Notes: generated by a model from the sequence alone, not told the origin. DNA of 37,720 bases from a virus (IMGVR_UViG_3300012943_000001:167743-205462); one strand, 5' to 3'; shown: positions 4,711-11,928, numbered from the stretch's first letter. Numbers and translations: made by a program.

Positions 4711-5196
4711 GTGGATACTACACTCAAAAAGATTGACGCCCTTTTTCGTCATATCGAGGGTGTGCAGAGCAATTGTCGCATCCTTGGGGAGAGGCTAATT
4801 GAATTGGGACGTACAGATTTGGGCGTTCAACTTATTAGAAACGCACTTATTCACGACCAAAGTAAGTTTAGCGGTATTGAGTGGGACAATCTTTCTAATG
4901 AAGTGGAGACTGCCGAGTCTAAACTTCTTCTTCAAGAAGCGATTTCACATCATAACCGCACCAATCCGCACCACCCTGAATTCTGGGGAGGTATTAAAAA
5001 TATGCCTCCAGTCTACATAGCGGAGATGGTTTGCGATTGGAAGGCTCGCTCAAGTGAGTTCGGGACTTCATTGCAGGAATGGATTGACGAGTCAGCTACC
5101 GTGCGTTTCGCGTTCACGAAGCGGGACAAAATCTACAAGGACATCAAAGCGTTCTTATCGCTCTTATTAGAGAAACCATTTAAGCCAGTGACGTAA
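4711..5196 (+). CDS. HD-superfamily protein (DUF5662-like)
   Basis: IHDQSKF, HHNRTNPHHPEFW, EMVCDWKARS motifs; GTG start. Confidence 0.8.
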   Translation: MDTTLKKIDALFRHIEGVQSNCRILGERLIELGRTDLGVQLIRNALIHDQSKFSGIEWDNLSNEVETAESKLLLQEAISHHNRTNPHHPEFWGGIKNMPPVYIAEMVCDWKARSSEFGTSLQEWIDESATVRFAFTKRDKIYKDIKAFLSLLLEKPFKPVT

Positions 5197-5554: not shown

Positions 5555-5769
5555 GAGAGACTAGAGAGCAGACCCAGAAGCGTCTCAACAAGTTCTTTGA
5601 GAGGCGAAGCCCCAGCTTCCACGTAAGGGTAGCTATGGGTGTTCGTCAGTTTAAGGGTAGGTTCTGTTATGTAAATTGCGACTGCCACTTCCGCCCTAAA
5701 AAGGGTTGGCTTGGAGGCTATGAAGAATATCGAGTTCGGCTTTCAAAAGAAGGTATATTTATCGTATGA
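5551..5769 (+). CDS. Hypothetical protein
   Basis: ATGA-coupled to groES. Confidence 0.6.
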   Translation: MRETREQTQKRLNKFFERRSPSFHVRVAMGVRQFKGRFCYVNCDCHFRPKKGWLGGYEEYRVRLSKEGIFIV

Positions 5770-6215
5770 AAGTTCTTGTCACAGGTCATCGTAAGTTCAA
5801 ACTAGAGAACTACGATTGTGGCTGGATTAGACTCGCTCTACAGCAAGCTATCTACGACCTCAAGCAGAAGCACGGCGGCTTTCTAGGCTATGCAGGAATG
5901 GCCTCTGGCGTTGATTTATGGTTCTGTGCTGAGTGCGAGAATCAGGACGTATCGTTTGTCGCCTGTATTCCTTTCGAGGAGCAGGCAGAAACTATGGATA
6001 AAGAAGACGCGGAGATGCGTGAGCACTGGATTGGGGCCGCAGGCTTCGTTAAGCACGTAAAGAATTCATGGATGGTCGAAGAGTGCGATATGGGAATTGT
6101 CGTTTGGGATGGAAACAAAGGCGGCACTCACAACGTAGTCCAACAGCTTATTGAGAAGAAAAAATCCTTCATTTGGATTAACCCGGTCGCTCAGAAAGTT
6201 TGGGATTGTTCTTGA
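5766..6215 (+). CDS. SLOG/YspA-like (DUF1273) nucleotide-binding protein
   Basis: VTGHR, GMASGVDLW, VACIPF, VVWDGNKGGTHNVV. Confidence 0.8.
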   Translation: MKVLVTGHRKFKLENYDCGWIRLALQQAIYDLKQKHGGFLGYAGMASGVDLWFCAECENQDVSFVACIPFEEQAETMDKEDAEMREHWIGAAGFVKHVKNSWMVEECDMGIVVWDGNKGGTHNVVQQLIEKKKSFIWINPVAQKVWDCS

Positions 6216-6522: not shown

Positions 6523-7128
6523 ATGCTTACAAGATATTTCGGCCCCACTCCCTACTCAGTTTTCGGCTCTCTAGGCGGCACACGAGATGACAAGTACGTT
6601 ATTTTTGGCGTTGACAATAAACTTTACGCCTATCATCTTGTAGGTGGAAGTATTAAGTGCCTTACTCATTGGAAAGAGGCGGAAGTCGCAAAGACGCTCA
6701 AAAACCAACTCTGGCACCAATTCACTGTAGCTGAGTTGGAAACGTTTATTCCCGGACAAATTGTAGGTGTAGAAATTGCGGGCGTCAAGTCGTTCTTCGA
6801 AAGCTCGCCGAACGCGAAATTTTTAATTGACAAGCCTACCGTCGATGGTCAAGGCTTCATCAAAGTCAAATCCAAACAAAAAACTAAAATGGCAGTCATC
6901 GGTCAACAACCAGTATCCCAAAACGTCGTGGACACAACTCCACGCACAGTCACCAGAGGTCAGCTCTACTATAATCTCGCAGAGAAGCAGGTTCAGCGTA
7001 TCATCGAAATCCAAGGTCACCTTTATTGGGCGTCCTATCACAAACAAGCAGCAAAGCCATACGGCATCAAATCTTTCCGCAAGGCAACAAAGGCTGAGGT
7101 AGATTCCTATCTCGCTAACGCCAACTAA
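6523..7128 (+). CDS. Hypothetical protein
   Basis: ORF with ATG 34 nt from TTGACT(6489). Confidence 0.7.
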   Translation: MLTRYFGPTPYSVFGSLGGTRDDKYVIFGVDNKLYAYHLVGGSIKCLTHWKEAEVAKTLKNQLWHQFTVAELETFIPGQIVGVEIAGVKSFFESSPNAKFLIDKPTVDGQGFIKVKSKQKTKMAVIGQQPVSQNVVDTTPRTVTRGQLYYNLAEKQVQRIIEIQGHLYWASYHKQAAKPYGIKSFRKATKAEVDSYLANAN

Positions 7129-7426
7129 TTTTCAAAAGCACGTCTACGCTGCCATAGGTAGGGAAGTCTCTGTTCGGTTAAGTCCGGCCCTGAGTCCTAT
7201 GGTAGAGGAAGTTCGCCGCTTCTTAACACGCCGCAGGCAGACCTAGTAACTGGGAAACCAGCAGAACAGTCGTTATGACCTCATGGAAGAAGCAACCCTA
7301 AAGTTCCTAGAGTGAGTGTTACTCGACAATGGTAAGGTTGGGGCAGTTTGCTATTAACACGCAACCAGACGCAAGTCTGAGACAAATGTAGACCTAATAC
7401 AGAACGGCGGCTATTACTTTTGAAAA
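7129..7426 (+). ncRNA. rnpB: RNase P RNA (reduced specificity domain)
   Basis: P1 TTTTCAAAAG/CTTTTGAAAA; P2 GTCTAC/GTAGAC; P3 CTGCCATAGG/CCTATGGTAG; CR-I GAGGAAGTTCGCC; P4 AGT(T)CGCC/GGCGGCT with bulged U; P5 GCTTCTT/AAGAAGC; L15 GGTA; CR-IV AGACAAATG; CR-V ATACAGAAC..GGCTA. Confidence 0.85.
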
Positions 7427-7806
7427 CTCAACTCTCCCGAGTGTATGCCCCTGTGGCAATTTGCACAGAGGAGAGTTGTTTTATCTAGCTCTTTCTTGAT
7501 ACGTTCGAACGAATGATTTTTCGCCATAGCGATAGCAATCGAATTTTCCTTGACTTCTGGGTCAAGATGGTGAAACTCTAAAGCAGATAGAAATTTATTG
7601 AATCCGCAGCACTGGCAAGCTCCACCTTTATAAGCGACCGCTTTTACTTTCATTTCCCTACGTTTCTTCTGAAGTCGCTCACGTCGATTATTCAGTACGG
7701 ACGCTCCGCAATAGTAAGCTATCGTTCCACGATTAACTCCCGTCTTTTTCTCAATCTCTCTGTAACTTAAACCCTCTGACCTAAGCTTCAATAGTATGTC
7801 TTTCAT
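7414..7806 (-). CDS. HNH endonuclease with N-terminal HTH
   Basis: GLSYREIEKKTGVNRGTIAYY HTH; GGACQCCGF, LEFHHLDP, LLCANCHRGIH; ATG at 7806. Confidence 0.9.
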   Translation of the reverse strand: MKDILLKLRSEGLSYREIEKKTGVNRGTIAYYCGASVLNNRRERLQKKRREMKVKAVAYKGGACQCCGFNKFLSALEFHHLDPEVKENSIAIAMAKNHSFERIKKELDKTTLLCANCHRGIHSGELSFQK

Positions 7807-7833
7807 ACTTTGATTTACACAGGTTGGACTTTT

Positions 7834-8100
7834 ATGGGAACACAACCATACAACCTCGCAGAAAATAAAAGAGTGGCGAACGCGGCAGTTCTTGCGTTCC
7901 TCCAAGCGAATCCTTCATGGGTTTTCGCAGGCTATGTATTAGTCGATACTGATACAGCTAACATGCGAATCTTTGCGGATGGTAAAGAGCGTATGCTTAT
8001 TACGCCCGAGCGTAATGAGTTGATGGACCCGAAGCTTCCATGCTTCCAAGTCAATATGGACAATCTCAGGAAACAGATGGAGCAGAGCGGACACGACTAA
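7834..8100 (+). CDS. Hypothetical protein
   Basis: ORF track 7810..8100; ATG 7834 preferred. Confidence 0.6.
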   Translation: MGTQPYNLAENKRVANAAVLAFLQANPSWVFAGYVLVDTDTANMRIFADGKERMLITPERNELMDPKLPCFQVNMDNLRKQMEQSGHD

Positions 8101-8405
8101 TGATATACTCTAGAAGAAAAACAATCGCTCGAATCATTTACTTGCTGAATAGTCCGACTTTTCTATTCATGTCTCAAGGCTTCGCGTTTCGAGGAAAAAG
8201 ACTTCGAATCCGCTATGTAAATCGCAAGGCGAGCCACACAGAGTTGAATAAGCTTGACACCACGACTCTTCGCCTTCTTCATGACTGCATGATTATAACT
8301 GAGTCCATAGCTCCTAATCTCAAAAGAACTTTAGGCAACAACGTCTCAAAAAGAGGATACGAATGGAACGTCCCATTTACTCCTCGCAACCGCTTTTCAA
8401 AGTGA
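8100..8405 (+). CDS. Hypothetical protein
   Basis: TAATG coupling to the upstream gene. Confidence 0.55.
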   Translation: MIYSRRKTIARIIYLLNSPTFLFMSQGFAFRGKRLRIRYVNRKASHTELNKLDTTTLRLLHDCMIITESIAPNLKRTLGNNVSKRGYEWNVPFTPRNRFSK

Positions 8406-9205
8406 GTAACATTCTTTCAGGTAAATCTATCGAACTCCTCTGTGAATTTCACGGAGGCTCGCATCTTTACGGGCTCAATACGCCTGCCAGCGACATCGAC
8501 GTTCGAGGCGTGTACGCAAATACGGACTACACGTCCATCCTTGGTACGAAACGCTTTGACGAAGAGCGTAGGCAAACGGCGAGCATCCAAGAGGATATCG
8601 TCTACAAAGAGGTGAGTCACTTTATCCGTCTTCTTAAACAGTCGAATACGGAGGCGTTGGAAATTCTTTTTGCGTCTGAGTCTGCGTTCTCTATACTCTC
8701 CGACTCCATGAAGTTGATTCGTTCCTACCACGAGTCTCTTGTCGATTCTGAGCGTCTATACAAATGCCTTTGCGGATATATGCAGGGCGAGTATCGTCTT
8801 GCTATTGGAGAACGTAAAGGCCAGATTGGCGGCAAACGCTACGAGTCTGTACAGAAGTACGGGTTTAGTCCGAAAAACTTTACGCAGCTCTTCCGCCTCG
8901 CCTATGCAGGCCAGATGTTCTTTGAGCAAAATCGCTTCCCAGTTAACATTAAAGAAGAAAAAGACCCTGACATTTGGAACGCTTTGATGAATATCAAAAC
9001 GAAGCCAGAACTCTTCACGAAAGACGAGCTTACGCTTAAATATGCTGAGGCTGAGTTGGCCCTTGAACAGGCTTACGAAAACCGCGTCGTAGAGCGTAAG
9101 TTTGATGAAGACAAAGCGAATGAGCTTCTATTTGATGTCTATATGCCGCACCTCGTCAATGGCTATCAGGAAGCGTTGTCGAAGCGAATTAAGAGTCGCG
9201 AATGA
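8402..9205 (+). CDS. Pol-beta superfamily nucleotidyltransferase (RlaP / RNA-repair-associated type)
   Basis: GGSHLYGLNTPASDIDVRGVY, NTEALEILF, YGFSPKNFTQLFRL; GTG 8402 coupled to the upstream stop. Confidence 0.8.
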   Translation: MSNILSGKSIELLCEFHGGSHLYGLNTPASDIDVRGVYANTDYTSILGTKRFDEERRQTASIQEDIVYKEVSHFIRLLKQSNTEALEILFASESAFSILSDSMKLIRSYHESLVDSERLYKCLCGYMQGEYRLAIGERKGQIGGKRYESVQKYGFSPKNFTQLFRLAYAGQMFFEQNRFPVNIKEEKDPDIWNALMNIKTKPELFTKDELTLKYAEAELALEQAYENRVVERKFDEDKANELLFDVYMPHLVNGYQEALSKRIKSRE

Positions 9206-10055: not shown

Positions 10056-10168
10056 GGGGAAGTAGCTCAGAGGTGGCGAGACGCAAGTCTTGTAGACTAG
10101 AGTCAAATCTAGGTAGAGCGAGCGATAACTTCGCTAGGTCGGTGGTTCGAATCCATCCTTCCCCACCA
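10056..10168 (+). tRNA. Non-canonical tRNA with expanded D-loop and 5-nt anticodon loop
   Basis: Acceptor GGGGAAG/CTTCCCC-A-CCA, D-stem GCTC/GAGC enclosing two extra hairpins, arm AGCGA-TAACT-TCGCT, T-arm GGTGG-TTCGAAT-CCATC. Confidence 0.8.
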
Positions 10169-10389: not shown

Positions 10390-10565
10390 GGCTCCCCGTC
10401 TCTATACATCAGTACGAAGTAGACTTCAGCTTCGTAAAGTTGATTGAGGTGAGGCGAAAAACCGAATTTTGTTCTTTGTTAGATTATACGACTCTCTAGG
10501 AAAACGTTAATCCGCTTGGCTCGCAAGGCTAAGAGAACTCTGTTCAATTCGGAGGGGAGCCTCCA
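10390..10565 (+). tRNA. tRNA-Cys(GCA)-like RNA with ~100-nt expansion replacing the D-arm
   Basis: Acceptor GGCTCCC/GGGAGCC-T-CCA; arm TTGGC-TCGCAAG-GCTAA; T-arm CTCTG-TTCAATT-CGGAG; 119 nt between acceptor and anticodon arm. Confidence 0.65.
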
Positions 10566-11283: not shown

Positions 11284-11359
11284 GCTTGGGTAGCTCAATG
11301 GCAGAGCAGGCGTCTCTAAAACGCGTCGGTTGTGGGTTCGACTCCCACCCCTTGCACCA
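11284..11359 (+). tRNA. Amber suppressor tRNA (anticodon CTA)
   Basis: Acceptor GCTTGGG/CCCTTGC (two U-U), D-arm GCTC/GAGC, arm GGCGT-CTCTAAA-ACGCG, T-loop TTCGACT, A73, CCA; own promoter TTGACT(11247)-N17-CAATCT. Confidence 0.88.
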
Positions 11360-11859: not shown

Positions 11860-11928
11860 AGGTATGTAGTCTAATGGTAAAACACGAGGCTATTTCCGAG
11901 TATCTTGGTTCGAATCCAAGCGTACCAG
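11860..11928 (+). pseudogene. tRNA-like element lacking a proper anticodon arm
   Basis: GGTATG/CGTACC, D-loop AATGGTAA, intact T-arm CTTGG-TTCGAAT-CCAAG; no 5-bp anticodon stem. Confidence 0.55.

Follow-up and report, generated by a model that had tools for sequence, protein, structure and literature searches.

An RNase P RNA homolog with a type-A catalytic domain and a reduced specificity domain in phage tRNA arrays

The window under study, a stretch of viral DNA 37,720 nucleotides long, contains on its plus strand a real, non-coding gene for an RNase P RNA homolog, present in a single copy in its 205-kb genome and occupying 298 nt (positions 7129-7426). Computation shows that this RNA carries a complete catalytic domain of the bacterial type A, comprising P1-P6, P15-P18, both pseudoknots, the bulged U and the joining regions. 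RNase P RNA is the ribozyme that trims the 5' ends of new tRNAs in cells; it belongs to the few universal ribozymes and, to our knowledge, has counted as a housekeeping gene of cells (and organelles) only. The reading favored here, at a probability of about 0.7, is that the phage gene supplies the RNA subunit of a phage-made RNase P, which would act together with host RnpA in cleaving the 5' leaders of phage pre-tRNAs.

The original prediction was of an RNase P ribozyme with a minimised specificity domain (S-domain). Its core is borne out by covariation, by agreement with the conserved blocks of type-A RNAs, by a match of one homolog to the Rfam model RF00010, by the viral origin of the DNA and by the location of homologs in tRNA arrays, whereas two of its details, a B-like layout and the placement of a GGUA motif, had to be abandoned.

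Locus and homologs

The window constitutes the last 38 kb of a complete virus record of 205,462 bp with direct terminal repeats, which indicates a viral origin. The gene fills the gap between a plus-strand ORF of no Pfam family (6523-7128) and a minus-strand ORF (7414-7905). No credible ORF is present within 7129-7426 under translation table 11 or with TAG read as glutamine, a reassignment tested in view of a CUA-anticodon tRNA in the window. The lack of a visible rnpA, pointed out for the window from the start, holds for the whole 205-kb genome searched with PF00825, in which canonical rnpB was not found either, and the same PF00825 search returned no RnpA in five further carrier records (six in all, including the genome of the window). 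A promoter and terminator scan of the window around the element gave nothing over shuffle expectation, and a synteny search with the upstream 201-aa ORF found no relatives.

The minus-strand ORF encodes an HNH endonuclease (PF01844, with an HTH) and overlaps the last bases of P1. Since a contig of a related strain (run X2) tracks the window to 7425 and diverges directly after, the HNH gene looks like a mobile insertion at the exact 3' end of the RNA gene. Directly 3' of P1, at 7431-7482, CAACTCTCC and GGAGAGTTG form a 9-bp inverted repeat that encloses a large loop and has TTTT after it; a simple terminator scan did not report this repeat, which overlaps the C-terminal end of the opposite-strand HNH ORF. 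A run labelled “RNA-Seq cDNA” that shares words with the window was rejected as evidence of expression, being probably DNA; moreover, contigs cannot show transcript ends.

Homologs were sought by sequence patterns. An exact 18-mer from the CR-I-like block gave seven matches in IMG/VR, of which one was truly homologous and six were due to chance, and gapped patterns built from the junction blocks recovered further members from viral contigs and metagenomes, where two matches (L021 and L022) were rejected as chance. After removal of duplicates the family comprises 15 distinct homologs of 234-302 nt each, all on phage or metagenome contigs, the largest of which reaches 279 kb. The same gapped pattern found no homolog in 185,579 prokaryote species, each represented by one genome; four matches there were rejected as chance occurrences inside coding DNA and without Rfam signal. 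With blastn against GenBank phages the element remained unmatched, and the tRNAs alone produced matches.

Two members are divergent, L033 (L033:3499-3789, minus strand), which is GC-rich, and L035 (L035:8052-8319, minus strand); in both, J2/4 is enlarged by a small hairpin that separates the P2 3' strand from ACAGAA, and CR-I has a 2-nt insertion (GAGGNNAAGUUC). The GC-rich composition of L033 means that the family covers phages of quite different base composition. On the minus strand of L024, a second, isolated CR-I-like block (AGAGGAAGCTCAGGAC) stands about 70-85 nt upstream of the element, and in L036 (2100-2125, plus strand) the stretch TTGACATAAGCGACTCTATG, found just upstream, resembles the P1-P2 5' end of L011-type RNAs and may be a recombination scar left when the 5' part was replaced.

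Helices of the catalytic domain

The helices of the original prediction are supported far beyond chance, and this by covariation in 10-15 homologs, not by folding energy, which is uninformative relative to shuffled sequences (MFE z-score -0.95 on the plus strand and -0.36 on the minus strand). Pairs were counted across 15 members in a register fixed from invariant anchors, without per-sequence optimisation. P4 was paired in 120/120 cells, P15 in 45/45, P5 in 60/60 over its inner 4 bp, P3 in 73/75 and P2 in 88/90, compared with 24-45 of 90 when the partner of P2 was slid; such slid-partner controls gave about 30-48% of cells paired over all helices, and 20-53% for P4 and P2. In ten members, with P2 written as a pseudoknot crossing P4, the pair-count tool found 97.4% of 381 cells paired versus 31-44% after the 3' partners had been slid by 1-3 columns. 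Both sides had changed in 27 of 39 pairs, the covariation score of 0.738 compares with maxima of 0.129 (slid partners) and 0.20 (shuffles), and none of 500 shuffles reached the observed values on any measure. RNAalifold, run on ten members without prior structure, recovered P3, P5, P15 (3 bp, YCC/GGR), P16, hairpin X and P18, together with the long-range P4, in which a single base bulged and every pair was intact. Each of the ten members tested has a P1, 6-15 bp long and different in sequence each time; its length was reached in no more than 3% of shuffles for nine of them and in 6.7% for L009, whose P1 has 6 bp.

These counts bear directly on the suspicion that a captured host rnpB is decaying here or that the element is a functionless chance look-alike, to which one might be led by the window alone, with no significant Rfam match and a folding energy like that of shuffles. 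In fifteen diverged copies, compensatory changes have preserved every helix (97% paired versus about 35-45% in controls), many members have promoters of their own, and tRNA-Ala synteny is seen in 9/15. The covariation effectively refutes this reading, which is accordingly hardly credible.

Table 1. Elements of the phage RNA in window coordinates.
Feature	Position	Strand	Remarks
P1	7129-7138 / 7417-7426	+	10-bp terminal helix
P2	7142-7147 / 7388-7393	+	crosses P4, forming a pseudoknot
P3 hairpin	7150-7204, stem 7150-7159 / 7195-7204	+	6/7 pairs doubly changed
CR-I-like GAGGAAGUUC and P4 5' strand, with bulged U7213	7205-7218	+	
P4	7210-7218 (bulged U7213) / 7405-7412	+	3 bp, bulged U, 5 bp
P5	7219-7224 / 7287-7292	+	3-4 pairs covary
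P6	7225-7229 / 7316-7320 (P17 loop)	+	pseudoknot, J5/7 to P17 loop
Mini S-domain	7230-7286, about 57 nt	+	P7/P10-like stem (..AGG / CCU..), internal loop (CAG / GUUAUGA), distal hairpin
P5 3' strand and J5/15 (CAA)	7287-7295	+	
P15	7296-7298 / 7340-7342	+	outer pair alternates U-A / C-G
P16	7304-7307 / 7331-7334	+	
P17	7310-7313 / 7321-7324	+	
L15 GGUU	7336-7339	+	15/15, directly 5' of P15 3' strand
Hairpin X, family-specific extra between P15 and P18	7346-7365	+	5/6 pairs doubly changed
P18 hairpin	7366-7370 / 7375-7379	+	GCAA tetraloop; 4/5 pairs doubly changed
J18/2 (GAGACAAAUG) and P2 3' strand	7379-7393	+	GAGAnAAAUG in 15/15
J2/4 ACAGAA, P4 3' strand (7405-7412) and GCUA (CR-V-like)	7399-7413	+	

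The positions predicted earlier for P1 to P5 and for the GNRA hairpin agree with those of Table 1 within +/-1 nt, and the compensatorily changed P4 with its bulged U, proposed at the same time, is now seen in 10 sequence versions among 15 members, with four positions variable and the bulged U kept in 15/15. A switch between U.G and C-G beside the bulge identifies the invariant second U as the bulged one. The geometry of P4 is the same in the real bacterial sequences compared. The related strain adds two paired substitutions, G7142A with C7393U in P2 and A7369U with U7376G in P18. The loop of P18 is of the GNRA type in eight of the first ten members, UUCG in L013 and 6 nt long in L011. For P6, fixed-register counting was used because a free best-helix search does not discriminate at 5 bp and a definition based on MFE failed; nine members gave 45/45 cells paired, versus 10-20 of 45 with slid partners, three of the five pairs covary, and further P6 variants are visible by eye in newer members. 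The GGUA at 7331-7334, formerly assigned to a P15 loop, proved to form the 3' side of P16 and lacks conservation, the invariant motif being the GGU(U) of L15.

Relation to known RNase P RNAs

Three authentic type-A RNAs, from a Steroidobacterales MAG, Pedobacter and Flavobacterium, aligned to the structure line of RF00010, served as the reference, and every landmark of the phage family is matched in them in the same order and register. P2 is joined to P3 by CGC in both groups, P5' is joined to P15 by CAA in both (CAA in 13/15 phage members and UAA in 2/15; CAA or AAA in real type-A RNAs), P18 is GNRA-capped in the type-A RNAs and mostly so in the phage family, and the 3' end is formed by P1' in each. 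CR-I reads GAGGAAAGUCCGG in the type-A RNAs and GAGGAAGUUC-N4 in the phage family, which is shorter by one A than the consensus of bacteria and has a U.G pair beside the bulge. In the P15/P16 loop, the 5' side is AAAUAG in type A and UAAAGn in the phages, and the 3' side before P15' is GGGUA and (A/U)RGGUU, respectively. J18/2 is AGAUAAAUG followed by P2' in the type-A RNAs, and the phage 9-mer occurs identically in the Flavobacterium RNA. From J2/4 to P4' the type-A sequence ACAGAAYCCGGCUUA corresponds to the phage consensus ACARAA-N4-GGCUA, found in 15/15 members. The CR-I, CR-IV (J5/15-P15) and CR-V-like blocks recognised in the original prediction are thus all in place, with small differences (GAGGAAGUUC, UAAAG, ACARAA and GGCUA). 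Since A replaces G at position four of ACAGAA in 6/15 members (ACAAAA) and CR-I is one A short, full catalytic competence cannot be assumed.

The whole catalytic domain therefore resembles that of type A (E. coli M1 RNA, rnpB; RF00010), including P1-P5, the P2/P4 pseudoknot and the pairing of P6 with the P17 loop. The phage RNA differs from type A in being virus-encoded, in its size (234-302 nt versus about 320-400), in the loss of P8, P9, P12-P14 and the CR-II/CR-III module that reads the T-loop, and in the extra hairpin X, which is missing from the Rfam type-A consensus. With type B (B. subtilis; RF00011) it shares the common catalytic core. Type-B RNAs are not known to contain P6, P16 or P17 and possess P5.1, P15.1 and P10.1. 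P6, P16 and P17 are present and covarying in the phage RNAs, so the “B-like” label given to their layout fails; as read from the sequences, the layout is that of type A plus one extra hairpin between P15 and P18.

The S-domain had been described as much shortened, and it indeed measures only about 57 nt in the window. Its plan is common to all members: a short stem (..UGG / CCA..), an asymmetric loop in which RAG is opposite GUUAWNA, and a hairpin of variable length. The P7/P10-like stem encloses 22-51 nt across members and is paired in 38/50 cells, a modest level of support. The complete specificity domain, P7-P14 including the CR-II/CR-III that read the T-loop, is not seen in these RNAs, and the Rfam alignment of L024 placed nothing in the S-domain. 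By eye, the P10/P11 strands of real RNAs (GGAAAG ... GCAAACCCCAC) look like the loop with its flanking sequence (GG-GAG-G ... GUUAAUACCAC), and this suggests that the mini S-domain could be a vestige of P7/P10/P11 from which P8, P9 and P12-P14 have been removed.

The nearest natural case of S-domain loss is type T of the Thermoproteaceae (Pyrobaculum; Lai et al. 2010, cited in PMC7191817), which is found in archaeal cells and acts with archaeal proteins, whereas the phage RNA has a bacterial type-A catalytic domain with L15 GGU and P6/P16/P17. Rfam scans of the window and of members matched no RNase P family beyond RF00373, RF00010 and RF00011 and gave no match to an archaeal-type core of the type-T kind, which has its own Rfam model.

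The original prediction had proposed covariance-model searches as a check, with the lack of a significant hit to be counted against it, and the outcome differs between the window and the family. At gathering thresholds, the whole window yielded seven tRNAs and no RNase P RNA. A permissive scan of 6950-7600 gave a single match, to RNaseP_arch (RF00373) at 7.6 bits and E=8.8, in an alignment spanning P1 and the ACAGAACGGCGGCUA stretch, and the window sequence did not match RF00010; for the window alone, then, the result was the unfavorable one. In contrast, L024, which aligns throughout with the window element, matched RF00010 when scanned alone, over model positions 1-367 with 38.4 bits and E=9.3e-11, the positions of the S-domain being deleted. 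L016 gave a marginal full-span match to RF00011 (E=0.019), the sole match to that model, and L033 gave no RNase P match in Rfam. None of the members reaches the curated gathering score of RF00010 (100 bits), the best being L024; the scores lie below it because about 150 model positions of the S-domain are deleted. A reverse search of bacterial RNase P loci with R1, a covariance model of the 3' half of the phage RNAs, was not significant, the true bacterial sites scoring E=0.65-2.4 and one off-target site E=0.06. Homology to RNase P RNA may be considered established at the level of the family, while the family falls outside RF00010 as curated.

This class of phage-encoded RNase P RNAs appears to be unpublished. 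Full-text searches outside the subscription journals turned up no report of an RNase P RNA encoded by a phage, and a review of the RNase P field from 2024 names phages only as sources of substrates. The only earlier virus-encoded RNase P-like RNA found in the literature is the one claimed for camelpox virus and orthopoxviruses, for which a review gives “some secondary structure similarity” and no cleavage of pre-tRNA in vitro (PMC3001073). The camelpox RNA, which comes from a eukaryotic virus, stands apart from the phage family with its full conserved core, covariation and tRNA-gene setting.

tRNA-array setting and proposed function

Thirteen of 15 members are co-oriented inside phage tRNA arrays, which number as many as 26 tRNA genes within 15 kb; these phages carry 5-26 tRNA genes beside the element, and L024 is one of the two members without a tRNA gene in the flank examined. 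The next co-oriented downstream tRNA is tRNA-Ala in 9/15 (L004, L009, L010, L011, L013, L015, L034, L036 and L037), mostly with the anticodon CGC and at a gap of only 9-17 nt in L004, L037 and L034; cleavage by RNase P where this tRNA starts could define the 3' end of the RNA. tRNA-Leu(GAG) is often found upstream. A perfect TTGACA -35 box stands 45-55 nt upstream in eight members. Such a box is missing upstream of the window copy, whose transcription may continue from the gene that precedes it. Seven loci (L004, L010, L011, L015, L034, L036 and L037) share a conserved box, GTTCTTTGA, situated between P1 and the sigma-70-like promoter; its 10-nt form AGTTSTTTGA also occurs at window position 5591 and a second time in L010 and L034, and the box may represent a phage promoter or leader motif.

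In these loci 74 of 79 tRNA genes encode the 3'-CCA, which fits the conservation of the L15 GGU. On the favored reading, the phage RNA would recruit host RnpA during infection, its L15 GGU would pair with the genomically encoded 3'-CCA of phage pre-tRNAs, and it would cleave off their 5' leaders, giving the phage its own capacity for tRNA 5' maturation to serve a large tRNA array. With the T-loop-reading module gone, recognition would proceed mainly through the acceptor stem, the CCA and the leader. RnpA in bacteria binds the catalytic domain only. The borrowing of host RnpA is a plausible assumption, given that no rnpA was found in the six carrier records and that the RnpA-binding regions of the catalytic domain are conserved.

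The same two observations, that the partner protein must be the host's when no phage rnpA is found and that the RnpA-binding regions (P2-P3, J18/2 and the J2/4 area) are conserved, could also be invoked for a decoy, a homolog that soaks up host RnpA or pre-tRNAs and thereby throttles or redirects host tRNA maturation. Such a role would also accommodate the loss of the S-domain, which gives efficient tRNA binding, and the camelpox virus precedent, the only earlier viral RNase P-like RNA, inactive in vitro (PMC3001073). However, an RnpA decoy needs no elements that contact substrate or metal, and yet the bulged U, the J5/15 adenosines, the L15 GGU and P6 are kept in all members; furthermore, the adjoining 5-26 phage tRNA genes need RNase P, so that blocking it would hurt the phage. 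Because the contact elements are invariant and the phage tRNAs depend on the activity, the decoy is disfavored and seems quite unlikely.

It is also conceivable that the RNA is catalytic without host RnpA, either alone or with an unrecognised phage protein, hairpin X and the loop of the mini S-domain serving as binding sites. Hairpin X and the RAG / GUUAWNA loop are indeed family-specific and conserved, and RNA-handling genes whose function is unknown abound in the phage genome, but the loci share no protein gene that accompanies the RNA; only homing endonucleases and scattered small ORFs recur in them. Bacterial-type RNase P RNAs, moreover, are established to depend on protein in vivo. A phage enzyme independent of RnpA is thus rather unlikely, and maturation of phage pre-tRNAs with the aid of host RnpA is retained as the preferred function.

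What the stripped S-domain would contribute to such an enzyme is a more tentative matter. The idea, raised in the original prediction, that it is tuned to odd tRNA-like substrates or resistant to host shut-off is a speculation. In a fuller form, the reduction of the S-domain would relax or change the choice of substrates, and a hybrid of phage RNA and host RnpA would mature phage pre-tRNAs and non-canonical tRNA-shaped RNAs that the host handles poorly, even when the expression of host rnpB, or its RNA, is shut down or attacked; this proposal may be considered possible but doubtful.

Should the preferred function prove true, the translation-related functions brought by phages would extend to tRNA 5' maturation. 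The family would offer a natural RNase P of the bacterial type consisting of a C-domain plus a stub, a ready test of the need for the S-domain in vivo that invites comparison with archaeal type T, as well as a compact ribozyme scaffold of 230-300 nt for engineering. It would likewise raise questions about hybrid enzymes of phage RNA and host protein and about competition for RnpA during infection.

Homologous ORFs of about 200 aa start a few bases from the 3' end of the RNA in L010 (3161-3775, minus strand), L015 (1701-2393, plus strand) and L016 (2052-2636), with an N-terminus (MN.GVYAIRN..NGK) that is GIY-YIG-like by eye. Since these ORFs, as well as the HNH gene of the window, adjoin the RNA gene, their distribution suggests repeated targeting of this conserved gene by free-standing homing endonucleases.

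The window contains several further elements related to RNA. A tRNA with the anticodon CUA, of amber-suppressor type and called “Pyl” by ARAGORN, lies at 11284-11359; a 110-nt match to a tRNA model is located at 10056-10165, a tRNA-Cys found by ARAGORN only at 10490-10565, and a weak tRNA match of 37 bits at 11860-11928. Among the protein genes, a DUF5662 protein (4711-5196), a YpsA/SLOG-like protein (5766-6215) and an RlaP-family nucleotidyltransferase annotated with “RNA repair pathway” (8363-9205) add to the RNA-centred gene content of the phage.
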